64,000 nt of DNA from Bacteroidia bacterium (GTDB lineage: Bacteria > Bacteroidota > Bacteroidia > 2-12-FULL-35-15): positions 17,792 to 81,791 of the forward strand of contig JAEUTU010000129.1 in assembly GCA_016786925.1 (NCBI GenBank). Reading direction: 5' to 3'. A model generated the notes under the pieces. It had not been told where the DNA came from, ran no database searches, and saw only the letters and a program-made list of their open reading frames with translations. The translations under genes were made by a program, and so were the position numbers. Shown one piece after another: positions 4,974 to 37,249 of the stretch (the first letter of the stretch is position 1; every line of letters starts with the position of its first letter).

Positions 4974-4996
4974 ACTCTTTCTAAGATCAAACAAAA

Positions 4997-5028
4997 AGCC
5001 CTTTAACAAAAGTTAAAGGGCTTTTTTT
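4997..5028. terminator. Bidirectional rho-independent terminator between the convergent epimerase (+) and FkbM methyltransferase (-) genes
   Basis: The stem is agccctttaac/gttaaagggct (11 bp, perfect) with loop aaaa. T7 follows on the + strand and an A-run precedes it. Confidence 0.7.
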
Positions 5029-5042
5029 GATTATGTATCTAT

Positions 5043-5768: not shown

Positions 5769-5771
5769 TCT

Positions 5772-6473: not shown

Positions 6474-6494
6474 TCTATCAAATATTAGAAGGAC

Positions 6495-6502
6495 CAAAAA
6501 TA
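6495..6502 (-). promoter_or_regulatory. Candidate -7 box (TATTTTTG on the minus strand), 22 bp upstream of the ATG at 6473. It lies in the divergent region shared with the CstII-like gene.
   Basis: The plus strand reads caaaaata, which is TATTTTTG on the minus strand. Confidence 0.3.
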
Positions 6503-6600
6503 GCAAAAAAAAGCATATTTAGTCCTTTATTCAGCACAAAAGACCCACTCTGAATACAGAAATAAACTTAGTTTAATTACATTTGTAGCCGAACAGATAC

Positions 6601-18458: not shown

Positions 18459-19429
18459 TAAGTTATAAGGCATTCATTAATGGATGGATCTCCTTTTTGT
18501 TTACGAACAAAGGTCAGAAGATTTTTTAAAAACAGTTTATGCAATTGTGCAGACTCACTATAAGTAGTCAGTTCGCAGTTTTCATTGGAAAGGATAGCAT
18601 CTACCACTTTATTGGTCAACTGACTTTGAAAAAGCATTTTGTGAGTTTGCTCTTCCCATGCCCACTTATTCTCCAACTTACTCACCCATATTTTTGTTTC
18701 AGCACCTTCTTGAATACTATAGCGTGCTGTGGGCGTTTGAATAAGAACAGAAACAGGTGAAATTTCCTTTGAATACGAAGTGATCGAAGCAAAATTATTT
18801 CCGGCAACAGCTCTGATTGTCCCTGTAAACTCAACATAACCGGCCCTTTTACTTTCCAAAATTTCATTATCTATCAATATATGATCCAGCTCAGGATCTG
18901 TTCTATCTGTCAGATAGCTGAACAAGTCCAGCATGTGAATTCCATTGCAACCCAAGCCCCATGAATTTCCAGTAACATTGAATTGAACGGGACCTGTTAA
19001 TTCACTTTTAATTGTTTTATAGAAGGGCATCATCCTACGTGGACAATTCACCCATGTTTTTATTTGATGCTGCTCTAGTAATTTTTCAACTACATTATAA
19101 TCTTCCAGATTAGGAAATAAAAATTTCTCTAATACAAAATGTTCAACTTTTGCATGCTTTACTAATTGTTCGATAACAACTCTTCGAACTTTTGAATTCG
19201 TAGCCACAATCGCAACATCGATTTTTTTGTGCAATTGATCTACTGACCCCAAAAAGGCTATACGTCCTTTGAATGCTGCTGCGACTTCGTTAAATCTGGC
19301 TTCCGCAACATTCAAAGAATCTTGAGAGGGATCCATCACTTGAATATCTAATTGATGTTCACATGTAGCTAAAGCCTGCAAATGCCTACTACCTAATTGC
19401 CCCGCACCAATCAATACAATATTTTTCAT
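18458..19429 (-). CDS. Gfo/Idh/MocA-family NAD(P)-dependent oxidoreductase
   Basis: MKNIVLIGAGQLGSRHLQALA N-terminal dinucleotide-binding motif. 323 aa. Confidence 0.75.
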   Translation of the reverse strand: MKNIVLIGAGQLGSRHLQALATCEHQLDIQVMDPSQDSLNVAEARFNEVAAAFKGRIAFLGSVDQLHKKIDVAIVATNSKVRRVVIEQLVKHAKVEHFVLEKFLFPNLEDYNVVEKLLEQHQIKTWVNCPRRMMPFYKTIKSELTGPVQFNVTGNSWGLGCNGIHMLDLFSYLTDRTDPELDHILIDNEILESKRAGYVEFTGTIRAVAGNNFASITSYSKEISPVSVLIQTPTARYSIQEGAETKIWVSKLENKWAWEEQTHKMLFQSQLTNKVVDAILSNENCELTTYSESAQLHKLFLKNLLTFVRKQKGDPSINECLIT

Positions 19430-20091
19430 CTTACGATCTGTTTTAATTTTTCTGCTATCCGTTCTGCATACAATTTATTACCTAATACATTCAGATGTGA
19501 ATCAATGGGATGTAAATATTTTTCATAATCGATCTGATTCAGTAAAAATGAATGAACATCCACAAGCAGATCATCTTTTATATACTCATTTAAAACACTA
19601 TTAAATCTGGTAATTGACTCATTGGCTCCCGGTGTATCTTTATTTTGAAACGCATTTACAGGAGCAATGTTTACCCATATCAATTTACCCGAGAACTCTT
19701 CTTTCACTGTGCTGATAGCTCTTTCAAATTCATTAATACTTGTCCATGTTTTAGAGCGAATATACTTAATAAAAAAAGCCCTATTCATACGAATGATCTT
19801 ACGTATCAGCTTATTAAAAAAGGAAGTTGAAATAGTCCTTTCATGGCTGATCACACGGGGATATGCATCTACAATCCCTGATTGAATAACAATAATATCT
19901 GCATCACGGTGTGTATTTATCAAACTTGGCATATCAGTCATTTTCCGGAATGACAAATAATCAACTATAAAAGTATGTTCCGGAAATAATTTTTGAATGA
20001 TCACAGGAAATGTTTCACTTTCATTCACCTCCACAACATTATTATGAATGCGAGGTCCGCCATAACTGTCTGCAAGGATCACTATCTTCAT
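19426..20091 (-). CDS. SGNH/GDSL-like hydrolase-fold protein (possible sugar O-acyl esterase/transferase). First gene of the operon.
   Basis: MKIVILADSYGG N-terminus with a conserved Ser in an SGNH-type block. 221 aa. 4-bp overlap with the downstream gene. Confidence 0.4.
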   Translation of the reverse strand: MKIVILADSYGGPRIHNNVVEVNESETFPVIIQKLFPEHTFIVDYLSFRKMTDMPSLINTHRDADIIVIQSGIVDAYPRVISHERTISTSFFNKLIRKIIRMNRAFFIKYIRSKTWTSINEFERAISTVKEEFSGKLIWVNIAPVNAFQNKDTPGANESITRFNSVLNEYIKDDLLVDVHSFLLNQIDYEKYLHPIDSHLNVLGNKLYAERIAEKLKQIVR

Positions 20092-20111
20092 ATTTTAAGA
20101 ATAAAAGCATT

Positions 20112-20119
20112 CAAATTTA
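20112..20119 (-). promoter_or_regulatory. Candidate -7 box (TAAATTTG on the minus strand), 21 bp upstream of the operon's first start codon (20091)
   Basis: The plus strand reads caaattta. It lies in the 147-bp divergent intergenic region. Confidence 0.3.
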
Positions 20120-20207
20120 CTTGATTTTTCGAGATAAAGATGAAGAATTTGAACTCCATAAATTTTGTTAATTTGAAGACAAACAATTGCAGAACAGAGT
20201 TTTAATT

Positions 20208-20215
20208 TATCTTTG
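20208..20215 (+). promoter_or_regulatory. Candidate -7 box TATCTTTG, 23 bp upstream of the flippase ATG (20239)
   Basis: TAnnTTTG match. TTTG motifs lie at 20164-20167 and 20172-20175, but the spacing is longer than canonical. Confidence 0.3.
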
Positions 20216-20238
20216 CTGTAGACAACGATCGTGCAAAC

Positions 20239-21720
20239 ATGGGAATCATTGAAAAACAAGCAACTAAAAATGTGATCTACTCCTATTTAGGAGCATTTTT
20301 GGGCTTTATTACGATCATTTTCTCATCGCATGCATTAAGTCCAGATGAAAATGGGCTAACTCGTATCCTTCTTTCATTATCGATCTTAATGGCGCAATTT
20401 GCCGGTTTAGGCTTTAACACGGTCACCATCCGTTTGTTTCCATATTTCAGAGATCACGACAAAGGACATCATGGTTATCTATTTTATGGTATTCTGGTTA
20501 CATTGGCCGGCTTTTCTTTGTGTGTCATTTTCTATTTTTTATCAAAAGATTATCTGATCGAAAGTAATCAGGAGAAGTCAAAATTATTTGTCGATTACAC
20601 TCATTATCTTTTACCTCTAACGCTTTTTACTTTATTCTTCAATCTCTTTGATTATTACTTAAGAGCCTGCTATAACTCTGTGATCGGCTCCTCTTCAAAA
20701 GAATTCTTTCAACGGATCATAATACTCATTGTACTTGCCGCATTCTTTTTTAAGTGGATCGACTTTTCTGCTTTTGTATTATTATATGTTGCAGCTGTAT
20801 GTTTTCCTACCTTTATTTTACTGTATTACATTATCAAGTTAAAAGAATGGCATATTAAGCCGGTTAGAGGATTTGTAAGCAAAGAACTTAGAAAAGAGAT
20901 CATTAAACTGAGTTTATATTCCATATTAGCTGGAGGAGCTGGTGTTTTGATCTCTAACATTGATATTATCATGGTGAATCAAAAATTAGGATTAGCTCAA
21001 GCTGGTATCTACGGAATCGCATTTTATTTTGGAACGATCATCATTATTCCTTCCCGTTCATTACTAAGAATTGCTATGAGTGTGGTGTCAGAAGCATTCA
21101 AAAAAGATGACATTAAAGAGATCCACAGCATTTATAACAAATCATGCAACACACAATTAACGATTGGATTATTATTATTCATAGGAATCTGGGGAAACAT
21201 TGATAACATTATGCAATTACTCCCTCCAGAGTACAGAGGCGGTGAAAATGTGATCCTTTTTATTAGTCTAGGCTATTTAGTAGATATGGCCACAGGCATC
21301 AATTATGTGATCGTATTAACATCAAAATATTATCGTTTCGACACTTATTTTATGCTGATCGTTTTAACATTGACGATTGCAACCAATTATATTTTAATTC
21401 CTTTGTATGGAATAACAGGTTCTGCAATAGCTACAGCAATCACCATCTCATTCTATAATATTTTAAGATGGCTGTTCTTATATTATAAATTCAAGATGCA
21501 GCCCTATGATCTAAACACGATCAAATTGCTTTTAATAGGTGTGATCTCTTTCCTTCCGGGGTATTTCATTCCTGCAACAGGCATATTGTTTCTTGATCTG
21601 GCAATAAAAAGCAGTATTATTGGTGGTCTTTTTATACTGCTGATTCTAAAAATGGAAGCCGCTCCCGATATCAATGCGAAGATCAGAAAGAACCTGTTAC
21701 GCTTTCACATAAAACTATAA
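20239..21720 (+). CDS. Oligosaccharide/polysaccharide flippase (Wzx-like, MOP superfamily)
   Basis: 493 aa with about 12-14 predicted TM helices throughout. Typical polysaccharide biosynthesis protein architecture. Confidence 0.7.
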   Translation: MGIIEKQATKNVIYSYLGAFLGFITIIFSSHALSPDENGLTRILLSLSILMAQFAGLGFNTVTIRLFPYFRDHDKGHHGYLFYGILVTLAGFSLCVIFYFLSKDYLIESNQEKSKLFVDYTHYLLPLTLFTLFFNLFDYYLRACYNSVIGSSSKEFFQRIIILIVLAAFFFKWIDFSAFVLLYVAAVCFPTFILLYYIIKLKEWHIKPVRGFVSKELRKEIIKLSLYSILAGGAGVLISNIDIIMVNQKLGLAQAGIYGIAFYFGTIIIIPSRSLLRIAMSVVSEAFKKDDIKEIHSIYNKSCNTQLTIGLLLFIGIWGNIDNIMQLLPPEYRGGENVILFISLGYLVDMATGINYVIVLTSKYYRFDTYFMLIVLTLTIATNYILIPLYGITGSAIATAITISFYNILRWLFLYYKFKMQPYDLNTIKLLLIGVISFLPGYFIPATGILFLDLAIKSSIIGGLFILLILKMEAAPDINAKIRKNLLRFHIKL

Positions 21721-21766
21721 AGCCTTCATTTTTTGATGAAGGCTTTATAAAAATTAAATAGTGATA

Positions 21767-24295
21767 TTAGTCTTTCTTTTGTCGCAATCCCAACACAACT
21801 GCTCCTCCTAACATTCCGAACAGCACCAAACAACTTACTAAAGAGATCTTTTCACCTGTGTAGTATTTCGTTGGCTCAAATTTAAACTCGATCTTATGCT
21901 CACCGGCAGGTACACGCATTGCGCGTAAGATCCAATCACCTGAGAAATATGTTTTTTTCTCCCCATCAACATACACATTCCAACCATCTTTATAAAACAC
22001 TTCTGAGAATACAGCTAACTGCTCAGAAGATGTTTTAGATTCATAGGTCAAATGATTAGGTTTATACTCTGCCAAGCGGATCTTTGCGTTTGCATCAGCG
22101 CTAGGTTTAAAACCATCTAATTCAGATTGATAACGTTTGTCAACTACAATCGTTTTTGCAGGGTCGATCTCACCTAATGTCGCCAATTCCTGATCTGCAT
22201 TATCCACCATTTTTATCTCATCAACAAACCAAGCATTACCCAATGCATATCTGTTTTGCAATGGCTGTGCTTCCGGATTGTAAATGATATATTTAGTATT
22301 TAACATATTTAAAACACCTTGCTTTGAAAAAGTATATCTCAAAGCCGAATCGGTAGGATTAGATCTCAAAGTGTTTCCAATATTTTGAATATTAGAAGTG
22401 ATATGCGTTTCAATCAATTCTTGATATCTTCTCAATTTGGCCGGGTGGTAACCACCAACAGATTTGTGAAAATAAGAAGTAGCTGCATCGTTAAACGGGC
22501 CTTCTTTCGGACCGGCAAGATTCAGCACTCTGTAATTCGGATCCTTATCCTCCAAAATAGCAAGATCTGCTGCACTAGGAGTAAATGGCGTTTCTGCCTT
22601 TTTCTTATCACTAAAGCTTTTATCGTTCAAATGACGCTTGTCCACTCCCCACAGATCGATAAGGATCACCAAACCTAAAAGTGGGATCATGATATTGGCA
22701 TTTATCTTATTCTTCAAATATAACCATAGTACTAATGCACCCAACACTACAAAAAAGAAACTTCTCAGGGCATCGGCTTTAAACAAAGCAATACGGGCTG
22801 TTTCCACATTATCCATAACTTGTTGCGCAACCTGAGCACCATTACTTTTTTGAATACTTTCAAACATTTGCGCATCTGCTACTGATGTAAAATCTGTAAG
22901 AGAAGGCATCAAATAAAATAACAATGACAATCCACCTGTTAGACCAAAGGAAACAAAAAAGGCATTTTGTACACTCAACTCCGTTTTGGTAAAAGGCAAA
23001 CGAACTTTATCCTTGATCAAACCCGGATTCTTGATCAATTTATCGACTACTAAAATGGCTAAAAGGGGAATACAAAACTCGGCAATCACAAGAATTTGCG
23101 AAACGGCTCTAAACTTGTTATACATTGGGAAATAATCTAAAAACAGCTCTGTGAGCCACATCATATTCTTTCCCCACGACAATGTGATGGATAAGATTGT
23201 ACCCGCCAATAAAACCCATTTCATTCTGCCTTCCACCACAAACAATCCAAATACAAAAAGGAAAATCACGATCGCTCCTGCATAAGGAGACATCGTAAAC
23301 AATTGATCTCCCCAATATTGCGGCATACTACCGATGTATTCTTTCATTTGAGGATCTACATCTTTTAAGGCATTTTTATTTTCGGAAACAGGAATATTAG
23401 AAGAAGTACCTTTAAATCCCGGAATCATTAAGGTCATCACCTCTGCCTTACCCATGCTCCATTGAGTTGCATAATCTTTATCTACCCCACTCGTCTGGTT
23501 AGCACCATCTTTCGTTAATTCAGAAGGTCCACGAATGGTGTATTTAGAGTATTCATAAGTGCTCCAAAGGTTTGCAAAATTACAGCCAACACCAATCACA
23601 CCTGCGACTAGAAACACAGCAATTCCTTTTCCTATTTCTGCATACATTTTCTCCTTTATCTTTATGGCCCACTCGATCAACATATAGATCAAAAGGAAAA
23701 TAAAGAAGTAATAGGTCATCTGAATATGGTTACACAATAGCTCCAACGCAAAGAACAAGGCTGTCAATGCTCCACCCAACAAATATTTGCCTCTGTTAAC
23801 AAGAATAACACCTCCAAAAAGTGGTGGCAAATAACCTAATGCTGCCGCTTTGGTAATATGTCCTGCATCCAAAATAATAAACGTATAAGCTGTAAATGCA
23901 TACGCAATGGCTCCAACTATTGAAAGCCAGGGATTAACCCTTAGTATGATCAGTAAAATAAAAAAGCCTAGCATGAGGTTGAATAACATCATAGCCGGAG
24001 AAGACATACCTAGGGTTAGTATCGTTCTTACTTCATATAAAAAGTTATTCGGGTAGCGAATAGAAATTTGATAAGCCGGCATCCCACCAAACATAGAATT
24101 GGTCCACAAAGCCTCTTCTTTTTGCTGCTCTCTGAAATCGGAGATCTCTTTTGACATGGCTTTATTCAGCACCATATCACTTTGCACGATCACTTTATCT
24201 TTCAGCATCGGACTGAAGTATCCGTATGTCAGACCAACAAATAAAAGAACAGCTGTTATAACCGGGATTAACGCTTTTAGATTTATGTTTTTCAT
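21767..24295 (-). CDS. YfhO-family polytopic membrane protein (lipid-linked glycan glycosyltransferase family)
   Basis: 842 aa. Multi-TM N-terminal two thirds plus a C-terminal soluble beta-rich domain and a terminal TM helix. This matches YfhO-family topology. Confidence 0.7.
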   Translation of the reverse strand: MKNINLKALIPVITAVLLFVGLTYGYFSPMLKDKVIVQSDMVLNKAMSKEISDFREQQKEEALWTNSMFGGMPAYQISIRYPNNFLYEVRTILTLGMSSPAMMLFNLMLGFFILLIILRVNPWLSIVGAIAYAFTAYTFIILDAGHITKAAALGYLPPLFGGVILVNRGKYLLGGALTALFFALELLCNHIQMTYYFFIFLLIYMLIEWAIKIKEKMYAEIGKGIAVFLVAGVIGVGCNFANLWSTYEYSKYTIRGPSELTKDGANQTSGVDKDYATQWSMGKAEVMTLMIPGFKGTSSNIPVSENKNALKDVDPQMKEYIGSMPQYWGDQLFTMSPYAGAIVIFLFVFGLFVVEGRMKWVLLAGTILSITLSWGKNMMWLTELFLDYFPMYNKFRAVSQILVIAEFCIPLLAILVVDKLIKNPGLIKDKVRLPFTKTELSVQNAFFVSFGLTGGLSLLFYLMPSLTDFTSVADAQMFESIQKSNGAQVAQQVMDNVETARIALFKADALRSFFFVVLGALVLWLYLKNKINANIMIPLLGLVILIDLWGVDKRHLNDKSFSDKKKAETPFTPSAADLAILEDKDPNYRVLNLAGPKEGPFNDAATSYFHKSVGGYHPAKLRRYQELIETHITSNIQNIGNTLRSNPTDSALRYTFSKQGVLNMLNTKYIIYNPEAQPLQNRYALGNAWFVDEIKMVDNADQELATLGEIDPAKTIVVDKRYQSELDGFKPSADANAKIRLAEYKPNHLTYESKTSSEQLAVFSEVFYKDGWNVYVDGEKKTYFSGDWILRAMRVPAGEHKIEFKFEPTKYYTGEKISLVSCLVLFGMLGGAVVLGLRQKKD

Positions 24296-24396
24296 ATAAA
24301 AAGTATGTTTATAGAGAACAAATATAATTATTTAATTGAGGCGAAAACAGGCAAGTTTTACCTCATTTTAGGTATTTCAAAGTCATATTAAATGCT

Positions 24397-24404
24397 TATT
24401 TTTG
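24397..24404 (+). promoter_or_regulatory. Candidate -7 box TATTTTTG, 19 bp upstream of the ATG at 24423
   Basis: Direct TAnnTTTG match in the YfhO/dioxygenase divergent region. Confidence 0.3.
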
Positions 24405-24422
24405 CCTATCAATTCTAAAAAA

Positions 24423-25235
24423 ATGAAAAATTTGTTGAATCCTTCATTATTAGATGAAGCAAAAATAAAAGAGATACGTTCTGCATTCGAAAATGCGCAA
24501 CCTTGCAAACATGTGGCTGTTCCTAATTTTTTGAATGAAGAATTAGCCAATACACTATATGAGAATTTTCCAAAGTTGGAAGCATTGAATGTAAAAAGAA
24601 AGAGTATCAATGAAAACAAATCGGAAGAATACCATTTAGAACGCTACCACCCTGCTTTCAATCAGTTACGCGATTTTATGAATTCACCTGAAATGTATGA
24701 GTGGATTAGCAAAGTAACTGGGATTGAAGACTTGCGCTCTACTTATGATTCTTTGGGATCGGGAGTTCATCAAGGCGGACCGGGGAGTTTTGTTGACGTG
24801 CATGTGGATATAAACATGAATCCTGTTGCCAACCTTCACCGAAGAATAAATGTATTGATCTATTTAAATAAACATTGGAAAGATGAGTATGGCGGAGCAT
24901 TGGAGTTCTGGGACAAGGATGTAAAAAATTGCATTTCCAAAGTAATGCCTTATTTCAACCAGGCTGCGATCATGGTGACGGATGAAACATCCTATCATGG
25001 ATATGCAAAGATCAATATCCCTGATCATGAGAGTCGCAAATCATTTTACTGTTACTACTACACTCCTGCCGGAAAAGATTTTGTTTTCCGTGATTCGAGA
25101 TTCAAAACCCGCCCGGATGAAAGTGTAACTAAGACTGCTATAACCGAAGTTAAAGAAACATTAAAGATCAATATCAAACGTTTCTTAAAAGCTATAGGTA
25201 TAAAATCACTCGACTTCCAAGACAAAAATAAATAA
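24423..25235 (+). CDS. 2OG-Fe(II) dioxygenase, prolyl-4-hydroxylase-like
   Basis: HVDVHVD (HxD) ... RRINVLIYLNKHWKDEYGGALEFW ... SYHGY pattern resembles the P4Hc domain. The track ORF begins at a TTG (24402); the first ATG is at 24423. Confidence 0.55.
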   Translation: MKNLLNPSLLDEAKIKEIRSAFENAQPCKHVAVPNFLNEELANTLYENFPKLEALNVKRKSINENKSEEYHLERYHPAFNQLRDFMNSPEMYEWISKVTGIEDLRSTYDSLGSGVHQGGPGSFVDVHVDINMNPVANLHRRINVLIYLNKHWKDEYGGALEFWDKDVKNCISKVMPYFNQAAIMVTDETSYHGYAKINIPDHESRKSFYCYYYTPAGKDFVFRDSRFKTRPDESVTKTAITEVKETLKINIKRFLKAIGIKSLDFQDKNK

Positions 25236-26029
25236 TGTCACTTCACAATAAGGTAGTTTGGATAACAGGAGCTTCATCAGGAATTGGTGAAGCTCTTGCT
25301 TATGTTTGTGCTAAACAAGGGGCTAAACTTGTGCTTTCTGCACGAAGAGAAAAAGAATTGGAACGTGTAGCAGAAAATTGCAAACTCGACAAAAAACATA
25401 TTCTCATACTACCACTTGACCTAGAACATACCAAACATGTTTCAGAAAAGGTTGAAACAGTAGTTAAAGAATTCGGAAGAATTGATGTATTGGTCAACAA
25501 TAGCGGTATGGGGCACCGTACCAAAGCTGTAAATACCTCTACCGAAATCGACAGAAAAGTAATGGAAGTGAATTTCTTTGGAACCATTAACCTTACCAAA
25601 GCAGTGGCCCAACAAATGCAAAAACAGCAATCAGGTAAGCTGGTGGTTATCAGTAGTATCATGGGGAAATACGGAATGCCACTTTACTCTACATACGCTG
25701 CTTCTAAACATGCATTGTATGGCTATTTTGAATCGTTGCGACAAGAACTTTTTAAAGACAACATCAAAGTATTGATCGTTAGTCCGGGTTTTATTAATAC
25801 CGATGTTAGCACAAAACTATTGCGGGAAGACGGATCGGAATACGGTATAAAAAGCGATGCTCAAGAGAAAGGAATGAGTGCCATGGATTGTGCAAAAGGG
25901 ATAGTAAATGCCATAAATTCAAATAGGGACCACAAATTCGTTGGAAAGTATGAGATCTTCTCCGTTTATGTAAAACAGTATTTCCCTAAGATTTTTTACA
26001 AACTGATGCGCAAAATGACCAAGGAGTAA
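25235..26029 (+). CDS. Short-chain dehydrogenase/reductase (SDR)
   Basis: VWITGASSGIGEALAY (TGxxxGIG). YAASKHAL (YxxxK). TAATG overlap with the upstream gene. Confidence 0.85.
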   Translation: MSLHNKVVWITGASSGIGEALAYVCAKQGAKLVLSARREKELERVAENCKLDKKHILILPLDLEHTKHVSEKVETVVKEFGRIDVLVNNSGMGHRTKAVNTSTEIDRKVMEVNFFGTINLTKAVAQQMQKQQSGKLVVISSIMGKYGMPLYSTYAASKHALYGYFESLRQELFKDNIKVLIVSPGFINTDVSTKLLREDGSEYGIKSDAQEKGMSAMDCAKGIVNAINSNRDHKFVGKYEIFSVYVKQYFPKIFYKLMRKMTKE

Positions 26030-26102
26030 ATCAGCTCCCCGACTGATATTAATCATCTTTTTATTTATAATTCCTCCCTAACCTTGTAACCAAGTTTAGG
26101 AT

Positions 26103-27143
26103 ATGTTAGGGATACAGATCAACTCATTTGAAGTAAAGAATTTTTTCGTACAAAGGATTGGCAAAAGTTCCTTTGTATGGCGCGGTATCGAATTCTTGCA
26201 AGGGCTTTCCTACAGCTTCAATTATTGGCTTTATTATGGCAGTGATCTTATCAAAAGAAAAACATCCATAACAGAGATCAACATCGAATTTGTAAGCTAC
26301 TGTAATTTACGCTGTAAGTTATGTTCCTTGGATCATGAAAAGACAAAAGTGAGAATGTCTCCCGAAACATTAAGTCATTTTTTTGATGAATTTCTGAATG
26401 ATGACCGTTTTAGAAGTGTTAAAACGATCCATCTATACAATGCTGGAGAAGTACTTCTACATCCTAAATTAGAAGAAATGCTTTCCATTATCAGAAAGTA
26501 TAAAGAGATAGCAGCAAAAGAGAAAAAGCACTTCCCCAAAATAGCATTACTTACAAATGCTACCATTTTGGATGAAGAAAATTCTGCCATCCTAATTCGT
26601 TCAGGCGTATTGGATCACATTCGCTTTAGTATGGATGGAGGAAATAAAGAAAAATTTGAAGAAATGCGTTTAAGAGCAAAGTGGGATGTATTCGTGAAAA
26701 ATATTAGCTCATTTTGTGAACTCAACCATAAAAGCGAAAAACCTATCCCTACGGGGATCATCACATTAGTTGAATATGAAAACAAACTTCACACCAAATG
26801 GATGAGTGATGAGTTTAAAAAATTATTGAACATGGTTGATGGCTACGAGCTACGTTATGCGCACAATTGGGGAGGAGAAGTTGAAATTGAGGAATTAAAA
26901 GACAAAAACAAGAAAGCATATAAAGTAGGATGTAGTTTATTAATGCATCAACTTGTTTTACTTCCTAATGGTGATATAACCGTTTGTTGTGCCGATCTGA
27001 ATTCAAAAGGAGTGATCGGAAATATATTAAAAGAAGATCTGTTTAGTATTTACAGAAAGCCTCAGCGGCTAGATATGTTACATAAATTCATGAAAGGGAA
27101 AAAGAAAGAGATCGATCTTTGTAAAGATTGTGAAACATTCTAA
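26103..27143 (+). CDS. Radical SAM protein with a C-terminal SPASM/twitch-like cysteine cluster
   Basis: CNLRCKLC (CxxxCxxC) at aa 68-75. C-terminal CCADLNSKG...CKDCETF cysteine cluster. 346 aa. Confidence 0.7.
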   Translation: MLGIQINSFEVKNFFVQRIGKSSFVWRGIEFLQGLSYSFNYWLYYGSDLIKRKTSITEINIEFVSYCNLRCKLCSLDHEKTKVRMSPETLSHFFDEFLNDDRFRSVKTIHLYNAGEVLLHPKLEEMLSIIRKYKEIAAKEKKHFPKIALLTNATILDEENSAILIRSGVLDHIRFSMDGGNKEKFEEMRLRAKWDVFVKNISSFCELNHKSEKPIPTGIITLVEYENKLHTKWMSDEFKKLLNMVDGYELRYAHNWGGEVEIEELKDKNKKAYKVGCSLLMHQLVLLPNGDITVCCADLNSKGVIGNILKEDLFSIYRKPQRLDMLHKFMKGKKKEIDLCKDCETF

Positions 27144-29116
27144 TTCTTTTCCTGAACAGGAAAGAAAAAAGAAAGGGGCTTTCTCAAAAACATTCTTAAC
27201 AAATACACCAATACTTTCCCTGTCTTTTTCAACTTTATCTGTCTTGCCTTTATTGCAACGAATAATGCCAGAGAAAAACTTACTAATATATTGACCACTC
27301 CGATCAAAACGATACCGGTTAATGGAATAATGATCTCATTCCAGGAAATCGAGTTTATAGTGGAACTCAAAGCAAAACCTAAATTCCCTGATGCAAAAGT
27401 AACATGCTGAATATCTATATTTAAACCTAAAATTGATCCGAAAAAGGCTACAAAAGCCAGAAAAAAACCTAAAGTAAAATTTCCTGTTAATCCTCCGATA
27501 TTGTTATTTACATAATCTCCAAGCTTTCCCGAAACCGATTCCCCTAAGAATCTTTTCAATAGAGGATGATTTTTAATTCTATCGCCATAACCATTAAACA
27601 CATTCGAATTTTCAGCAATTCCGGCAATTGTTCCTGACGCAAACAGCATTATACCGGCAATTGCACCATGCAAAACACATAATGTGGAAAATGGATCCAG
27701 TTCGTTTATCTTCGAAATAGCCTTTGAGTTCGATACAAGAGACTCGCCTGTAACAACCATCCAAATATAATTTATAGCAAATGAAACGGGCAATGCCAGA
27801 GCGATATTACCAACAACTGCAATAAATTGACTCCTGAATACTTTTATAATAAAGTTACCTATCTCTTTCACTTCATTCTCTTCTGTCTGACTCTCAATGG
27901 CTTTCGCAATAGTAGAAGCTGTCATAGAAGGCTGCTTGGTTGCAAGAGTGCCGTGAAACAATTGAATACCAATAAAACCAAATGAATAATTTAAGGCTTT
28001 TAAGATCGTATCTTGTAACAGTGGTAGGTGCAAACCATTGATCAAAAATTTAAATACAACTAAAAACCCAACAACCAAACCACCCTTAAGAGCATTTATA
28101 AACATCTCAAAATACTCTTTTACATTATTCGTTACATAATGCTCACCAATTCTACCTGTATGTTCAGTGATCTGAAACGCTAAAAGTGAGATCGTATCAT
28201 TAAAATACACACGAATACTATTTTTCTCATTCTCAATTTTCACCAATTTCTTAAACAATCGAAAGAGTGATGCATATTGCTCTGCCTCTGAATTACTGAC
28301 TATTAATCTCAACAATTCATCCAAACGTTTTAAGGACAAGTTTATTTTTTGCAAAACTATTGTCAGTGCTAAACTTGTACCGTACTTAGACTTACTCTCT
28401 TTTATTTCATTAACAAAACGAACGCATTCATCAATAGAATCAATCACATTTCTATACAATAACTCTTCCCTGCTTTTACTTATTTTATTGCTCTCTAAAG
28501 CTTCTATATAGGCATCAACAGACTCATGCAATTTCATAAACGGAGAGTCTTTATCAAGAACTTGATCGAAATTTTTAATAATATTTTGATCGATACTCAA
28601 TGAACAGATCACTTGAGATAATACATATATGTCATTCAGCAATTCATCAACTACTTTATCTTCTGTCCCTAATTGAGATGGATGTTTGACCCCTAAAACT
28701 TCAATAAATTCAGCATATAATTCATCCGGAATACCATTTAACCATACATAATCGTTCCGTTTATAAAAAACTTTGTTAACTATGCCTCTCAATGTGCTTA
28801 AGTCCGGCTCAATTGGAAGTAGCTTTCTGAATATTCTTTTTTTTATCTCTGAGAAAAAAGTCCCTCTGGATATTAAATTTACTTGAGTGTAAAGCTCTGA
28901 CTGCTTAGATGAAACAACAATATCAACAATATTAGATCTGAATTTATCACACAAAGAGTGATCTTCCTTAAGCACAAGAATGATGTCTTTTATACGCTGA
29001 GAGGCGTAAAAGCTATTGTCAGGATCATTGGGACGAATTCTTTCAACTAATGCAGAAAGGGTTTCCATCCGATCCGTAGGCTTGGATTCAGAAAATTGGA
29101 TAACAAACTCTCTCAT
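27140..29116 (-). CDS. Large polytopic membrane protein of unknown function. It has an N-terminal roughly 340-aa soluble helical region and a C-terminal multi-TM region. It possibly belongs to the poorly characterised family mis-named 'site-specific recombinase' (PF10136-like); this is unverified.
   Basis: 658 aa with clean ATG start. The hydrophobic segments are all in the C-terminal half (GLVVGFLVVFKFLINGL, IAVVGNIALALPVSFAINYIWMVV, LGFFLAFVAFFGSILGL, IIIPLTGIVLIGVVNILVSFSLALFVAI). Confidence 0.55.
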   Translation of the reverse strand: MREFVIQFSESKPTDRMETLSALVERIRPNDPDNSFYASQRIKDIILVLKEDHSLCDKFRSNIVDIVVSSKQSELYTQVNLISRGTFFSEIKKRIFRKLLPIEPDLSTLRGIVNKVFYKRNDYVWLNGIPDELYAEFIEVLGVKHPSQLGTEDKVVDELLNDIYVLSQVICSLSIDQNIIKNFDQVLDKDSPFMKLHESVDAYIEALESNKISKSREELLYRNVIDSIDECVRFVNEIKESKSKYGTSLALTIVLQKINLSLKRLDELLRLIVSNSEAEQYASLFRLFKKLVKIENEKNSIRVYFNDTISLLAFQITEHTGRIGEHYVTNNVKEYFEMFINALKGGLVVGFLVVFKFLINGLHLPLLQDTILKALNYSFGFIGIQLFHGTLATKQPSMTASTIAKAIESQTEENEVKEIGNFIIKVFRSQFIAVVGNIALALPVSFAINYIWMVVTGESLVSNSKAISKINELDPFSTLCVLHGAIAGIMLFASGTIAGIAENSNVFNGYGDRIKNHPLLKRFLGESVSGKLGDYVNNNIGGLTGNFTLGFFLAFVAFFGSILGLNIDIQHVTFASGNLGFALSSTINSISWNEIIIPLTGIVLIGVVNILVSFSLALFVAIKARQIKLKKTGKVLVYLLRMFLRKPLSFFFPVQEKN

Positions 29117-29119
29117 GGG

Positions 29120-29323
29120 CTATTTTACCTCTTCGTAATCAACATACTCTCCTTCAGAATCGGCCATTTTACGCTTTGCTTCTTTTGAAGAATAGGAATG
29201 CTTTACTTCACGCTGATCCTCAGAAACAGAGGACGATGTTTTATTAGATCGATAAAGATTTACGCTATGGATGATTCTCCATAGTATCCAGATCACAAGT
29301 ATTGTATAAAAAACATCTTTCAT
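29120..29323 (-). CDS. Small single-TM protein (67 aa) immediately upstream of the 658-aa membrane protein, with a 3-bp gap
   Basis: ATG start. The hydrophobic N-terminus FYTILVIWILWRIIHSV is followed by a charged, Ser/Glu-rich tail. It is in the same orientation and tightly linked to the downstream gene. Confidence 0.35.
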   Translation of the reverse strand: MKDVFYTILVIWILWRIIHSVNLYRSNKTSSSVSEDQREVKHSYSSKEAKRKMADSEGEYVDYEEVK

Positions 29324-30940: not shown

Positions 30941-33046
30941 TCATTGTTTAAGAATTGTAAATTCTACCCTTCTATTCGTTGCTTTTCCTTCTTCTGTATC
31001 ATTGTTAGCAATGGGTTTGGTTTCGCCATATCCCTTCGCTTGTAATCGATTCTTTTGAATACCTTTTGACGTAATATAAAGCATAACACTCTCTACACGC
31101 TGCTGTGATAATCGCTGATTATATTCATCATTCCCTACATTATCAGTGTGACCACCGATTTCAATCTCTATCCCGGAATTACTTTTTAAAAAGTCAACTA
31201 ATCGATCCAATTCCTGGTAAGAATCCGGCTTTAATTCTGATTTGTTAAAGTCAAAAAAAACATTGTTCAATCGAACTGTCTGCCCTATCTCTACCGGTAC
31301 TAAATAAAGATCTTTCTCAATTTCCTTATAACTGTCTAATGAACTCACATCTAAAAAATCGTTCACAGCATAAAATCCGTCTTTATCAGCCCTGAAGCTA
31401 TATTTCTTACCATATTGGAGGATAATGTTATATTCTCCACTCGATGGATTAGAAATGGCCTCTCCTACCTTTTCCTGAGATAAAACATCATAATAACTGA
31501 TCGCAGCCTTCAACGGTAAATTTGTTTTTTTATTAAGCACTTTCCCTTTTATTAACACCACTGGCAAAGGCTTTGCCGCCTCGGGTAATTTCACCTTTAC
31601 AATATCTCCTTCACCCAATGAATTTTCAGAGGAAACCATATAGGCAACATCTCCTGATGCAGGGATGGTAAAATAGGCATCCCAATTAACCGAATTGATC
31701 TCTGGCCCTAAATTTAAAGGAGTCGACCACTTCTTCCAAGTATCATCCAAACGTGTAGTCACAAAAATATCATTGCTACCATATCCCGGATGTGTATCCG
31801 ATGAAAAATAAAGCGTTTTATTATCTGCTGCCAAAAATGGTGTCGTTTCATAACCGGAAGTATTTATATCTGCTCCTAAATTTAAAGGCTCTGAATAGCT
31901 TCCATCCTTATTCAAAAAGCTAACATAAATATCTGCTCCTCCTTTTGAATCTTTCCGTTCGATAGCATGAAGCAAATAGGCATTGTCTTGTGATAAACAA
32001 TTATTTACATATATATGTGTATTGTAATAATTGTTTATCTGAATTTCTTTCGGCACAGCCCAACTATCAGCAGAACGTACAGCTACAGACAATCCTGCAC
32101 CTTTTTGGGTTCCATCCGGATTGTATGTATTGGAAAGATATAATGTATTATTGTCGGCTGACACCGATACCAACATATTGTGTCCACTATTATTAAAAGG
32201 CGAACCCATGTTTTGGGCTTCCGACCAAGTTGTTTCATTCAACTTCTTTGCATACCAGATGTCATCATTTACTGTTTTGCTGTGATTTTGAGGGTGATTT
32301 TTTCTACTAAAAAATAGTGTTTTACCATCAGGAGAAACGACAGGGCAAATTTCAGAATAAGCAGAATTAACATTTTTCCCTAAATTTTCTTTTATCAATC
32401 CTTTTACAGGATCCTTAATATGATTGATCCTTGGCATTGATCCTGTCAGTACTATTTTGGGAACACTCACTTTCTTTTGATTATATACGATCATTCCAAA
32501 ATAATTTCCCCACAGCTGCATCTTTTTACTTTCTATAGTCATCAAGACTTCACCATTCAGCAAAAATTGAATCTCAGCTCCTCTTTTATTTACCTTTAAG
32601 ATATTTACTCCCTGTTTAACTAAAGAAGTTGTTTTCCATTCTTGGATCTCGGAATACTTTCCTGATTCCGTTTTATTGATCTTGAAATAGCCCGAAGGAG
32701 ATATAATAAAGCTATTGTAATTTTCCCAGTCTTTTACCCCCCAAATGATACCATGGCCATTATTCTGATCACCGGTAATCTGCTCCATTTCAACTTCAAA
32801 AGAATAATCTTTGTTTTTATCTAGCTCTATTGATTTCCAGAACGCCCAACTACCTGAAGTACGTTTATGTTCAATCACATAAGAACCATTGTTAATACTC
32901 GCTTTTGAATCTTTATCATCCCACTCCGTCCATAATTTTAATTTATCAAAACTGTCTTCATAAGTTGTATCTACAAACTTTTTTTGTTGAGAGAATGCAA
33001 CCGTTGTGCAAAGACAAATACTTAAGGTTAAAAAAAATGATCTCAT
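30941..33046 (-). CDS. OmpA-family outer-membrane protein with TolB-like (PD40/WD40) beta-propeller repeats
   Basis: The C-terminal OmpA domain has GHTDNVGNDEYNQRLSQQRVESV...NRRVEF. Repeated PD40-like segments (SP.G..L.FSS). The signal peptide begins at the ATG at 33046 (MRSFFLTLSICLCTTVAFSQ). Confidence 0.8.
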   Translation of the reverse strand: MRSFFLTLSICLCTTVAFSQQKKFVDTTYEDSFDKLKLWTEWDDKDSKASINNGSYVIEHKRTSGSWAFWKSIELDKNKDYSFEVEMEQITGDQNNGHGIIWGVKDWENYNSFIISPSGYFKINKTESGKYSEIQEWKTTSLVKQGVNILKVNKRGAEIQFLLNGEVLMTIESKKMQLWGNYFGMIVYNQKKVSVPKIVLTGSMPRINHIKDPVKGLIKENLGKNVNSAYSEICPVVSPDGKTLFFSRKNHPQNHSKTVNDDIWYAKKLNETTWSEAQNMGSPFNNSGHNMLVSVSADNNTLYLSNTYNPDGTQKGAGLSVAVRSADSWAVPKEIQINNYYNTHIYVNNCLSQDNAYLLHAIERKDSKGGADIYVSFLNKDGSYSEPLNLGADINTSGYETTPFLAADNKTLYFSSDTHPGYGSNDIFVTTRLDDTWKKWSTPLNLGPEINSVNWDAYFTIPASGDVAYMVSSENSLGEGDIVKVKLPEAAKPLPVVLIKGKVLNKKTNLPLKAAISYYDVLSQEKVGEAISNPSSGEYNIILQYGKKYSFRADKDGFYAVNDFLDVSSLDSYKEIEKDLYLVPVEIGQTVRLNNVFFDFNKSELKPDSYQELDRLVDFLKSNSGIEIEIGGHTDNVGNDEYNQRLSQQRVESVMLYITSKGIQKNRLQAKGYGETKPIANNDTEEGKATNRRVEFTILKQ

Positions 33047-33140
33047 TTTTATGTTTTTATTTGTGATTAAAAATATAAAAACAAAAAATCCTTTGAAATA
33101 ATATTTCAAAGGATTTTTAAAATTTCTTACTAATTTCAGA

Positions 33141-33380
33141 TTAAGCTTCTGCCAATACTATGATCTTGTTGTTCAATACTTCAACAACACCACCTTTGAT
33201 CTCAAAAGTCTCCACCTTATTTGAAGTTTCGGTAACCTTAACCGTTCCTTTTTTAAGCGTTGCAATAATGGGTGCATGGTTATTCATGATTCCGAATGAT
33301 CCGTCTGCACCGGGAAGTTTCACTGCTGAAACATCACCACTATACACTTTTTTATCAGGAGTAATAATTTCTAATTTCAT
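33141..33380 (-). CDS. atpC: F0F1 ATP synthase subunit epsilon
   Basis: MKLEIITPDKKVYSGDVSAVKLPGADGSFGIMNNHAPII. 79 aa. It lies directly downstream of atpD. Confidence 0.8.
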   Translation of the reverse strand: MKLEIITPDKKVYSGDVSAVKLPGADGSFGIMNNHAPIIATLKKGTVKVTETSNKVETFEIKGGVVEVLNNKIIVLAEA

Positions 33381-33451
33381 TTTTATTAGTCTAATGTTTT
33401 CGGTAAAAAGCCTATAGAGCACTCTAAAGGCTTTTTACTTCTAACGAATTA

Positions 33452-34984
<1,533 letters not shown>

Positions 34985-35727: not shown

Positions 35728-36480
35728 ATGAAAAAGCTATTCATAGAAATCGGATTGATCGCCCGCTTTACGGGAAGGTTCTTCACAGAACTATTCAAAC
35801 CCCGCTTTGAGTTCAATGAATTTCTTCGTCAGTGTTTTTACATCGGAAACAAATCCCTACCACTTGTTGCAATCACCGCCTTCATCATGGGCTTGGTGAT
35901 CACGATCCAATCGCGCCCAACTTTAGTTGAATTTGGTGCAGAAGCATGGTTACCTAAAATGGTATCGGTTTCACTTGTCCGCGAAATTGCTCCTGTTATT
36001 ACCGCTCTTATCTGCGCAGGCAAAATAGGTTCCGGCATTGGTGCCGAATTAGGCTCCATGAAAGTCACCGAACAGATCGATGCCATGGATGTTTCTGGCA
36101 CCAATCCCTATAAATTCCTTGTAGTAACACGTGTAATGGGCACTACGCTTATGATACCGCTTCTTGCAGTATTGGCGGATACCGTTTCTCTTTATGGTGG
36201 CTACTTAGGTGCCAACATCAGAGGTGTAGTAAGCTGGGATTTATACTGGAATCAAGTATTTGACACACTTGTTTATGGCGATGTGATGCCATCCATCATC
36301 AAAACATTCTTCTTTGGTTTTGCGATAGGAATTATTGGTTGCTATAAAGGATTTAATTCAAACAAGGGCACCGAAGGGGTTGGACAATCGGCTAATTCAG
36401 CTGTTGTTATTTCATCCTTACTCGTATTTATTATCGACCTTATTGCAGTTCAAATAACCGATATTTTTAATCTGAATTAA
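35728..36480 (+). CDS. mlaE: MlaE-family ABC transporter permease (phospholipid/organic-solvent resistance transporter)
   Basis: 250 aa multi-TM protein with a conserved MlaE-like core. Followed by an ATP-binding protein and an MCE protein. Confidence 0.85.
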   Translation: MKKLFIEIGLIARFTGRFFTELFKPRFEFNEFLRQCFYIGNKSLPLVAITAFIMGLVITIQSRPTLVEFGAEAWLPKMVSVSLVREIAPVITALICAGKIGSGIGAELGSMKVTEQIDAMDVSGTNPYKFLVVTRVMGTTLMIPLLAVLADTVSLYGGYLGANIRGVVSWDLYWNQVFDTLVYGDVMPSIIKTFFFGFAIGIIGCYKGFNSNKGTEGVGQSANSAVVISSLLVFIIDLIAVQITDIFNLN

Positions 36481-37244: not shown

Positions 37245-37249
37245 TAAAA

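Follow-up and report, generated by a model that had tools for sequence, protein, structure and literature searches.

Three adjacent genes for redox enzymes, a 2OG/Fe(II) oxygenase, an SDR and a radical SAM enzyme (rSAM), were noticed in a 64,000-nucleotide stretch of a Bacteroidia genome (the window) beside a locus for glycan synthesis. In the original prediction such a neighborhood of a prolyl-hydroxylase-like oxygenase and an rSAM protein with SPASM/twitch-like cysteines was the signature of a system modifying RiPPs or protein side chains, with a sugar as the alternative substrate. We asked whether the three enzymes have a common target, and whether it is a peptide or a carbohydrate.

Organization of the three genes

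The three ORFs are situated head-to-tail on the forward strand, as had been proposed, and the Pfam domains of their products agree with this. The features of the region are:

21767-24295, - strand: YfhO-family GT-C-like membrane protein (PF09586), context of the trio (Pfam)
24397-24404, + strand: promoter-like Bacteroidota -7 motif TATTTTTG, consensus TAnnTTTG (motif list)
24423-25235, + strand: 2OG/Fe(II) oxygenase, 270 aa (ORF call, Pfam)
25235-26029, + strand: SDR, classical by its motifs, 264 aa (ORF call, Pfam)
26103-27143, + strand: rSAM, 346 aa (ORF call, Pfam)

The gaps preceding the three genes are 127, 0 and 73 nt, respectively. The predicted TAATG overlap is present, with the oxygenase stop codon TAA at 25233-25235 and the SDR start codon ATG at 25235-25237; the SDR-rSAM gap (26030-26102), given earlier as 74 bp, is 73 nt. 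The trio does diverge from the YfhO gene, which starts at 24295 on the reverse strand; with ATG 24423 as the oxygenase start codon, 127 nt separate the two. The oxygenase ORF is open from TTG 24402, which is probably not the start codon because it is inside the -7 motif, 19 nt 5' of ATG 24423.

The TAnnTTTG consensus comes from published work on Bacteroides promoters. The motif list has no other forward-strand match between the YfhO start and the SDR start, and the match inside the trio (25301-25308) is within the SDR coding sequence. Matches also stand 10-35 nt ahead of many other gene starts of the window (e.g. 20208, 29350, 6578 and 3860). Since the motif is not enriched across the window (76 observed vs 81 expected), the single site at 24397-24404 is weak evidence. 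A terminator scan found none between the three genes; sigma-70 promoter-like sites in the window are uninformative, being fewer than in shuffles, and an Rfam scan of the window found no riboswitch or other RNA family. The best reading of the tight spacing, the one promoter-like motif upstream and the absence of an internal terminator is that the trio forms one short putative operon.

Predicted properties of the enzymes

The oxygenase matches PF13640 (2OG-FeII_Oxy_3; E 1e-14, 55.5 bits vs the 27 cut-off), the facial triad H127-x-D129...H192 and R205/K206 do not vary among 67 sequences, and the model (pLDDT 87.6) has the prolyl-hydroxylase-like double-stranded beta-helix. By its iron triad, basic 2OG C5-carboxylate residue and fold it belongs to the prolyl-4-hydroxylase-like PF13640 oxygenases. 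Foldseek placed Tpa1/OGFOD1 first (E 6e-13, TM 0.65 on query), then PolD, PasI, PHD2 and PPHD; the structural neighbors thus include P4H-fold oxygenases acting on sugar nucleosides (PolD, PasI, HygX), which match almost as well as Tpa1/OGFOD1. The window protein shares the fold, the HxD...H triad and the basic 2OG-binding residue with the Tpa1/OGFOD1/PHD-type prolyl hydroxylases, but its identity to them is 17-19%, it is a single-domain protein of 270 aa whereas Tpa1/OGFOD1 have a second domain, an invariant loop (V57, R59-S61, N63, E64, K66, E68) is particular to it, and its C-terminus is made of a long basic helix plus an invariant tail with LDFQDKNK as the last residues.

The SDR matches PF00106 (adh_short; E 4e-56, 190 bits) and NCBIfam PRK06181 (244.5 bits vs the 215 cut-off), a family without an assigned substrate. 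Its translation contains TGASSGIG, NNSG, the S in VISSIMG and YAASK, that is, both the TGxxxGxG motif and the N-S-Y-K tetrad, which identify it as a predicted classical SDR. In SDR classification the residues following beta-2 point to the cofactor, and SARR at this site suggests NADP(H), that is, the ketoreductase direction.

The third protein matches PF04055 (Radical_SAM; E 1e-12, 48.6 bits vs 29.5) and the shorter Pfam SPASM model PF13186 (E 9e-10, 39.1 vs 21.5). Its CxxxCxxC motif (C67/C71/C74) is directly followed by an invariant LDH, and the model (pLDDT 87.5), in which beta and alpha elements alternate, matches rSAM structures. The motif, the Pfam match and the barrel-like model together assign it to the radical SAM superfamily. 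The C-terminal cysteines form the pattern C277-x12-G-x4-C295-C296...C340-x2-C343, the protein ends three residues past the last of them, and all of these as well as C67/C71/C74 are invariant in 63 homologs. The N-terminus is a Bacteroidota-specific two-helix extension of about 50 aa.

The best solved relative by sequence is BtrN (E 5e-13), which is also the top Foldseek match (E 5e-13, TM 0.74 on target; DesII, BlsE, viperin and SpeY are also listed), and in the alignment with BtrN chains 4m7t and 4m7s their C..C..CxxC is matched by C277, C295, C340 and C343. These matches identify the protein as a putative BtrN-like twitch enzyme with one predicted set of auxiliary-cluster cysteines. The full seven-cysteine SPASM motif (Cx9-15Gx4C...Cx2Cx5Cx3C...C) is absent, only Cx12Gx4C(C)...Cx2C being present, and the SPASM HMM TIGR04085 scores 18.9 bits, below its cut-off of 27; of the SPASM/twitch-like cluster proposed originally, the twitch part stands and the two-cluster SPASM part does not. 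The SPASM maturases anSME, CteB, SuiB, ChlB and SkfB have the full seven-cysteine motif and (except SkfB) two auxiliary clusters, mostly have an RRE or a peptide-binding groove, and their genes adjoin those of their substrates, whereas the window rSAM has five C-terminal cysteines, no RRE and no precursor. It also differs from BtrN, the 2-deoxy-scyllo-inosamine dehydrogenase of the butirosin pathway and the archetypal twitch radical SAM dehydrogenase: the two share only 16-20% identity, the window protein exceeds BtrN by about 100 aa and has the two-helix extension and, next to a ligand, an extra invariant cysteine (C296). BtrN belongs to an aminoglycoside cluster; the gene of the window rSAM is not in such a cluster, and its relatives are found in, or fused to products of, polysaccharide assembly genes.

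Both the SDR and the oxygenase have basic, amphipathic C-terminal helices, and an aromatic-rich helix is found at the N-terminus of the rSAM; the amphipathic-helix values of the three proteins are not distinctive and are at most a weak hint of membrane association.

Search for a peptide substrate

A RiPP or protein side-chain system found no support. No RRE (PqqD-like wHTH, PF05402 or related) matched at E<0.01 in Pfam, the N-terminus of the rSAM being modelled as two helices. Among the NCBIfam peptide-maturase families the best score of the rSAM was 54 bits against cut-offs of 170-855, and the cyclophane (triceptide) models YhhC and YhhB gave 34.3 bits vs 150 and 26.5 vs 445, respectively. 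Neither a protease nor a peptide exporter was found among the neighbors of rSAM genes.

The claim that no precursor ORF is present held in a small-ORF search of the gaps, which yielded one ORF of 28 aa (24305-24391), conserved only at the nucleotide level and only in a 95%-identical genome (L006). A census in 86 loci of ORFs of 15-90 aa situated up to 700 nt from the rSAM gene revealed no recurrent small peptide; the recurrent ORFs were frame shadows of neighboring genes, rpmH and the carB-linked DUF4834. The latter (29120-29323 in the window) was rejected as a substrate, as its occurrence follows carB and not the trio. Nothing was found in favor of the adhesin, which had been named as a possible target.

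Glycan context of the rSAM family

The glycan locus of the window contains a nonulosonic-acid pathway:

3894-21720: glycan locus, context of the trio
3894-4973: epimerase, glycan locus
5043-5768: FkbM/RfbT-like methyltransferase, glycan locus
7470-8159: CMP-transferase, nonulosonic-acid pathway
8159-9211: NTP-transferase, nonulosonic-acid pathway
9208-9825: PglD-like acetyltransferase, nonulosonic-acid pathway
13190-14314: hydrolysing 2-epimerase, nonulosonic-acid pathway
14296-15321: NeuB, nonulosonic-acid pathway
15318-16460: DegT aminotransferase, nonulosonic-acid pathway
16453-17445: 4,6-dehydratase, nonulosonic-acid pathway
20239-21720: Wzx-type flippase, glycan locus

It also holds two GFO oxidoreductases and a GDSL protein. 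The window rSAM adjoins this locus and most of its Bacteroidota orthologs adjoin none, whereas the sister branch is consistently found in such surroundings. Outside Bacteroidota, homologs with 42-48% identity were situated in polysaccharide loci in all six contexts checked: DegT, RmlA-like, GT2, Wzx, rSAM and methyltransferase (MT) in L060; Wzt with Wzt_C, then rSAM, MT and glycosyltransferases (GTs) in L170 and L171; Wzm/Wzt divergent from rSAM, with an MT-GT fusion convergent downstream, in L172; MT, rSAM, MT and seven GT2 genes in L173; and Wza, Wzz, Wzy, Wzx, rSAM, acetyltransferase and TylF MT in L174.

More distant homologs are fusions: MT-rSAM-MT, MT-rSAM-TPR, rSAM-MT and a 1764-aa rSAM-MT-GT2-GT4-GT2-TPR protein. 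Two fusions (P0355 and P0366) are 33-36% identical to the window rSAM over residues 51-346, with the motifs visibly kept. A comparison of 29 sequences from both branches at 41 family-invariant positions showed full identity at 34, among them the eight cysteines, LDH, SxDGG, R189, R251, D298, N300 and G306-N307; the remaining seven vary in a few glycan-branch members, W233-M234 and H254 differing in one sequence (P0244). The 34 shared positions argue for the same chemistry in both branches. Action on a sugar, the alternative in the original prediction, is thus supported for the rSAM at the level of the family, by the six contexts, the MT and GT fusions and the proximity to BtrN.

WbdD-type methyltransferase/kinase modules, together with Wzt carbohydrate-binding domains, make up the modular chain modifiers or terminators of ABC-transporter-dependent O-polysaccharide pathways. 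The sister-branch rSAMs, adjoining Wzt with Wzt_C and fused to methyltransferase, TPR, GT2 and GT4 domains, resemble these modifiers or terminators in architecture, while the window rSAM is a separate protein whose gene adjoins neither a methyltransferase gene nor Wzt. To our knowledge, WbdD/Wzt-type chain-modifier systems with a radical SAM domain have not been described; full-text literature searches retrieved no description of these rSAM, 2OG and SDR families and no rSAM in Wzt/Wzx systems.

Linkage of the three genes across genomes

A survey within 10 kb on either side of each gene showed that the trio is not a fixed unit: its conserved core is the 2OG-SDR pair, and the rSAM gene is a loosely attached third member. 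The oxygenase and SDR genes are adjacent, in both orders, in 27 of 40 independently sampled loci, and in 28 of 38 loci neither of them is found within 10 kb of the rSAM gene. It joins the pair or one of its members in a minority of loci and in several orders: 2OG-SDR-rSAM (12 loci), SDR-rSAM (L008, L012, L013), rSAM-SDR (L049, L053), 2OG-rSAM (L080) and rSAM-SDR-2OG-ABC (L087); in L044 all three genes are within 10 kb. The SDR is the commonest immediate neighbor of the rSAM gene (12 of 109 immediate neighbors from 58 loci). The YfhO-oxygenase pairing recurs in about 13 close-clade loci. Cultured species with orthologs are Chitinophaga pinensis, Owenweeksia hongkongensis, Phaeocystidibacter luteus and Sunxiuqinia elliptica.

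Two apparent associations were discarded. The SDR next to a Verrucomicrobial homolog (L084) is not the orthologous partner (24% identity, adh_short_C2 type, followed by a thiolase-like gene), and a YkuD lipoprotein, which in Vicingus is coupled to the SDR, is unrelated to the 228-aa lipoprotein of the window.

As for a well-known housekeeping family conserved independently of glycan loci, which the original prediction had set against its own reading, half of this was observed, in that most Bacteroidota rSAM orthologs are away from glycan loci; the other half was not, because the protein matches no known housekeeping family.

Alternative explanations

The loose linkage could mean that the three genes have no shared function, the 2OG-SDR pair being an independent and widely conserved Bacteroidota module (possibly for an envelope lipid or LPS precursor) and the rSAM gene a remnant of synteny with carB and DUF4834; they would then be an ordinary set of unassigned redox genes. 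In addition to the frequent adjacency of the pair in both orders, this agrees with the rSAM gene being within 3.5 kb in only 2 of 28 loci and missing at this site in 7 of 9 close-clade loci, with a distance of about 470 kb between the two genes in one 3.03-Mb chromosome, with an MsbA-like ABC exporter gene directly after the oxygenase gene in about 21 loci (overlapping it in L169), and with carB and DUF4834 flanking the rSAM gene or the pair in many lineages, as expected of a decaying ancestral block; neither the MsbA-like gene nor carB is present in the window. However, adjacency outlives true reordering and not inversion alone (2OG-SDR-rSAM vs rSAM-SDR-2OG, plus 2OG-rSAM), the top immediate neighbor of the rSAM gene is the orthologous, single-copy SDR, and the gene spacing in the window is compatible with co-transcription, so that we consider a lack of common function rather unlikely.

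If the target were a protein or a ribosomal peptide encoded elsewhere, the oxygenase would hydroxylate prolyl or other side chains and the rSAM would perform Cys/Ser oxidation, cross-linking or epimerization. Scores far under the YhhC and YhhB cut-offs, the lack of an RRE, a precursor and a neighboring protease or peptide exporter, the single auxiliary cluster and the embedding of the rSAM family in, and its fusion to, glycan machinery make this improbable. Still less credible is a housekeeping maturase of a cofactor or metallo-enzyme (tungsten/molybdenum cofactor or MoaA-like): the best NCBIfam match is indeed the tungsten-cofactor oxidoreductase maturase TIGR04317, MoaA models match too, MoaA is a structural neighbor and many rSAM copies stand alone, but the scores are 54.5 bits vs a cut-off of 380 and 36 vs 284, no target oxidoreductase recurs among the neighbors, and the family is small and patchy, with 194 clusters at E<=1e-30 among 1.8 billion representatives and about 105 species among 185,579, a count limited by the search patterns.

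Proposed function

The glycan-embedded and glycan-fused rSAM family, the absence of a precursor and the neighboring nonulosonic-acid/Wzx/YfhO locus suggest that the most likely target of the trio is a sugar of a cell-surface glycan and not a peptide. With a probability of roughly 0.55, we propose an operon of cytoplasmic redox enzymes acting on a carbohydrate, likely a lipid-linked or nucleotide-activated sugar of an envelope glycan. We infer the substrate, the order of steps and the participation of all three enzymes in one pathway, in which oxidation would precede reduction. By analogy with BtrN, the rSAM would remove a hydrogen atom from one of the carbons of the sugar, its auxiliary cluster serving as the electron sink, and so produce an intermediate that is a ketone or radical-derived; reduction of the carbonyl by the NADP(H)-type SDR could follow, with net epimerization or, after dehydration, deoxygenation as the outcome, and the 2OG oxygenase may add a hydroxyl in an O2-dependent step.

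More tentatively, and with less than even odds, the rSAM family as a whole may be an unrecognized class of polysaccharide-modifying radical enzymes, whose derived Bacteroidota branch intermittently joins the 2OG-SDR pair to tailor a conserved envelope glycoconjugate. Together with, or fused to, methyltransferases and glycosyltransferases of ABC-transporter and Wzx/Wzy pathways, these enzymes would introduce an unusual modification such as a chain-terminating cap recognized by the carbohydrate-binding domain of Wzt or, alternatively, catalyze radical epimerization or oxidation of an unactivated carbon; Cys296, the extra invariant cysteine, could be a hydrogen donor. The Bacteroidota branch, with its new N-terminal extension, would have moved out of the glycan loci.

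The carbohydrate-active radical SAM enzymes known to us (BtrN, DesII, BlsE, SpeY, AprD4 and others) belong to antibiotic pathways, and we are aware of none established in O-antigen, capsule or glycoprotein assembly. If confirmed, action on surface sugars would bring radical chemistry into the surface-glycan repertoire and make the rSAM gene a genomic marker of unusual sugars for glycan chemists. For annotation, an rSAM/SPASM protein beside a P4H-like oxygenase is an unreliable RiPP signature. The analysis also brings to notice a very widespread 2OG-SDR gene pair of Bacteroidota, while the rSAM family itself is spread over CPR bacteria, DPANN-type archaea, Planctomycetes and Bacteroidota.

Organization of the gene trio

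The three co-directional genes are present as described, and they diverge from a YfhO-family gene:

24423-25235, +, PF13640 2OG/Fe(II) oxygenase (Pfam); the reading frame is open as far up as TTG 24402, with ATG 24423 the probable start
25235-26029, +, classical SDR
26103-27143, +, radical SAM protein (rSAM)
start at 24295, -, YfhO-family gene

The predicted TAATG stop/start overlap of the oxygenase and SDR genes was found, while the SDR-rSAM gap is 73 nt rather than 74. ATG 24423 was taken as the likely oxygenase start because a Bacteroidota-type TAnnTTTG motif, found in a motif scan, spans 24397-24404. As scans identified neither a terminator-like hairpin between the trio genes nor a second promoter-like motif ahead of the rSAM gene, the trio is likely one transcription unit. 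GC content shows no shift along the region. All three proteins retain their cofactor residues.

Absence of RiPP hallmarks

Modification of a RiPP or of a protein side chain, the first function raised in the original prediction, found no support. No RiPP recognition element was detected by Pfam, and the rSAM model (pLDDT 87.5) has only two helices ahead of the barrel. None of the NCBIfam peptide-maturase models came near its cut-off; the best NCBIfam score of the rSAM protein was 54.5 bits (tungsten-cofactor maturase, cut-off 380), and the scores were 26.5 against a cut-off of 445 for rSAM with YhhB and 34.3 against 150 for the oxygenase with YhhC. The SPASM model TIGR04085 scored below threshold (18.9 with a cut-off of 27), and the C-terminal domain has five Cys versus seven in SPASM.

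As anticipated, the gaps hold no conserved precursor: conservation of their sole small ORF (28 aa, 24305-24391) extends no further than a 95%-identical genome. A census of all ORFs of 15-90 aa at most 700 nt from the rSAM gene in 86 loci returned nothing beyond frame shadows, rpmH, pieces of carB and DUF4834, and there was no peptidase or peptide exporter among 109 immediate rSAM neighbors in 58 dereplicated loci.

The rSAM family and glycan assembly

Residues C67/C71/C74, C277, C295, C296, C340 and C343 of the rSAM protein are invariant in 63 homologs. The best solved relative of the family by profile is BtrN (E 5e-13), whose twitch domain aligns column by column, with C277, C295, C340 and C343 on its C..C..CxxC. 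Foldseek also ranked BtrN first, followed by CteB, SuiB, DesII, BlsE, anSME, viperin and SpeY; since these matches are mixed, a peptide and a sugar substrate are not separable by structure alone.

An exhaustive HMM search at E<=1e-30 retrieved only 194 clusters. In a neighbor-joining tree the Bacteroidota proteins, all with an N-terminal extension, form one clade, and the glycan-locus proteins are its sister. Across the 29 sequences from the two clades, 34 of 41 family-invariant positions show no variation; seven differ in a few members of the glycan branch. When the collection was queried with a homolog from a MAG binned as Nanoarchaeota, all six contexts examined outside the Bacteroidota branch were polysaccharide loci.

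Polysaccharide loci containing rSAM homologs (GT, glycosyltransferase; MT, methyltransferase)
L060: GT2, sugar C-methyltransferase, three NDP-sugar epimerase/dehydratases, DegT, RmlA-like, GT2, Wzx, rSAM, MT
L170 (Wolfebacteria): Wzt with Wzt_C domain, rSAM, MT, GT4/GT2 fusion, epimerase
L171 (Deltaproteobacteria): DegT, GT2, epimerase, sulfotransferase, Wzt, rSAM, MT, GT2 genes
L172 (Planctomycetes): Wzm/Wzt divergent from rSAM; MT-GT fusion convergent downstream
L173: GT4, epimerase, Wzy_C, GT9, MT, rSAM, MT, then seven GT2 genes
L174: Wza, Wzz, Wzy, Wzx, rSAM, acetyltransferase, TylF MT, GTs

Their rSAM proteins are 42-48% identical to that of the window, as close as the orthologs of Owenweeksia (43%) and Chitinophaga (47-48%). 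Several of the 194 clusters are fusions (MT-rSAM-TPR-MT, MT-rSAM-MT, MT-rSAM-TPR, MT-rSAM, rSAM-MT), the longest being a 1764-aa rSAM-MT-GT2-GT4-GT2-TPR protein, and the architecture of these multi-domain proteins resembles that of O-polysaccharide polymerase/terminator proteins. In the fusions P0355, P0356, P0359, P0366, P0375 and P0478, rSAM is joined with class I MT, TPR and GT2/GT4 domains; P0355 and P0366 align to residues 51-346 of the window protein at 33-36% identity, with the family motifs visibly kept.

Taken together, the conserved catalytic residues, the embedding in polysaccharide loci and the fusions speak best for carbohydrate or glycan modification as the function of the family, so that the sugar alternative of the original prediction is supported at family level; by extension from the family, it is also the best-supported reading for the window rSAM. 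What would be new is the placement of a carbohydrate-type twitch rSAM in glycan assembly. In the literature that could be searched we found no description of this family or of the oxygenase-SDR (2OG-SDR) pair.

By analogy with BtrN, the rSAM enzyme would remove a hydrogen at a sugar carbon, with an electron going to the auxiliary cluster, to yield either a ketone or the product of a radical rearrangement. Reduction of this product by an NADPH-type SDR could result in net epimerization or, after dehydration, deoxygenation, and hydroxylation would fall to the oxygenase. The invariant C296, beside a cluster ligand, could donate hydrogen, as in radical epimerases. This whole mechanism is speculative.

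Conservation of the trio

Neighborhoods were sampled twice with independent anchors, rSAM (80 genome loci and five from exact look-ups) and the oxygenase (80 metagenome loci). The trio is not a fixed unit: it is intact in 12 of 86 rSAM-anchored loci, all from close relatives (rSAM identity 74-95%). Among 38 dereplicated rSAM loci that extend 3 kb or more to each side, the orthologous SDR directly adjoins rSAM in eight, the oxygenase lies within 3 kb in six, and 28 have neither within 10 kb; in these 28, rSAM is surrounded by unrelated genes (carB/rpmH/patatin, aroC, an E1 dehydrogenase, response-regulator-Crp hybrids, or FNR-like regulators with RIC). With the oxygenase as anchor, 40 loci had sufficient flanks, and the SDR adjoins the oxygenase in 27 of them (14 upstream, 13 downstream); only 2 of 28 loci have rSAM within 3.5 kb (2 of 9 in the closest clade). 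Both sets of counts thus identify the 2OG-SDR pair as the conserved core and rSAM as a third gene that is only loosely linked to it.

This linkage is nevertheless non-random and recurs in different orders, the SDR being the commonest immediate neighbor family of rSAM:

2OG-SDR-rSAM: window clade
SDR-rSAM: L008, L012, L013
rSAM-SDR: L049, L053
2OG-rSAM: L080
rSAM-SDR-2OG-ABC: L087 (gaps 47, 22 and 2 nt)
all three within 10 kb, with carB, DUF4834 and an ABC gene: L044

On one chromosome (OZ253956.1) rSAM and the oxygenase are far apart, at 1.79 Mb and 2.25 Mb. The pattern fits an old operon in decay. Selection that keeps the genes close and a gradual erosion of synteny account for it about equally well, so we retain both a functional link and mere synteny; a loose functional link is plausible.

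Oxygenase and SDR

In the oxygenase, H127-x-D129...H192 and R205/K206 do not vary among 67 homologs, and the family is widespread in Flavobacteriales. The closest Foldseek match of its model (pLDDT 87.6) is the Tpa1/OGFOD1 catalytic domain (E 6e-13), followed by the sugar-nucleoside oxygenases PolD and PasI and by PHD2, PPHD and HygX; the fold therefore leaves the substrate class unfixed. An MsbA-related ABC exporter (MsbA_rel 550-585 bits, below the cut-off) lies directly 3' of the oxygenase in about 21 oxygenase-anchored loci (L108-L163), as well as in L087 (5861-7651) and L169 (6819-8588, overlapping the oxygenase gene by 1 nt), which hints at a lipid or lipid-linked substrate. The exporter replaces or joins the SDR as the partner of the oxygenase. 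Two further elements are invariant in the oxygenase family: a basic loop (V57, R59-S61, N63, E64, K66, E68) and a disordered C-terminal tail (G259...D264-F265-x-D267-K268, 'SLDFQDKNK') that follows a long basic helix.

The translated SDR carries TGASSGIG, NNSG and S...YAASK, and SARR after beta-2, presumably indicating NADP(H); it reaches only PRK06181 (NCBIfam), a family with no assigned substrate. In Vicingus, the orthologous SDR is translationally coupled to a YkuD-type L,D-transpeptidase lipoprotein (L049 9610-10299; L044 4545-5240), which is absent from the window.

Genomic context

A glycan locus lies upstream of the trio. It contains a complete-looking nonulosonic acid pathway of legionaminic/pseudaminic type and further genes (7470-19429, with 3894-6506 and 20239-24295):

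nonulosonic acid pathway: 4,6-dehydratase, DegT aminotransferase, NeuB, hydrolyzing 2-epimerase, PglD-like acetyltransferase, NTP-transferase, CMP-transferase
other genes: two GFO oxidoreductases, GDSL protein, FkbM/RfbT-like MT (5043-5768), Wzx flippase, YfhO
6601-7473: MptE-like/DUF115 protein
9829-13200, -: 1123-aa adhesin-like protein with PKD/Ig/CHU_C (type IX secretion signal), amid sugar-biosynthesis genes, between the PglD-like acetyltransferase and the 2-epimerase

This gene content suggests surface or protein glycosylation, a setting that fits glycan modification by the trio. The divergent YfhO-oxygenase pair recurs in about 13 close-clade loci; the link is positional and limited to this clade.

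Downstream are the following genes:

27140-29116, -: 658 aa, full-length PF10136 'SpecificRecomb' (627 bits), no NCBIfam match; convergent with rSAM, its 3' end overlapping the rSAM stop by 4 nt
29120-29323, -: small DUF4834 protein (67-91 aa across the loci), whose N-terminal helix is hydrophobic and whose acidic C-terminus (GEYVDYEEVK) is conserved
30941-33109: OmpA/PD40 protein
33141-34957 and 35728-38230: ATP synthase epsilon and beta subunits; MlaE/MlaF/MlaD lipid-transport set

With housekeeping genes just downstream, the trio stands at the edge of the glycan locus and not inside an island. The PF10136 gene looks like an insertion between rSAM and DUF4834, as only a few relatives have it at this site (L006-L008, L089, L090, L097). 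DUF4834 follows carB, not the trio, and in many lineages is next to carB near rSAM or SDR (L010-L013, L020, L024, L002, L044).

Vicingaceae-type genomes carry a response-regulator-Crp/cNMP hybrid (353 aa) that is convergent with rSAM and abuts it, followed by a PAS sensor kinase (hybrid downstream of rSAM in L056, L059, L062-L064, L068, L074, L076, L079-L081, L083). In another clade (L022, L023, L025, L026) a Cys-rich FNR-like regulator is upstream of rSAM and a RIC/ScdA di-iron protein downstream. These neighbors may hint at redox or O2-dependent regulation.
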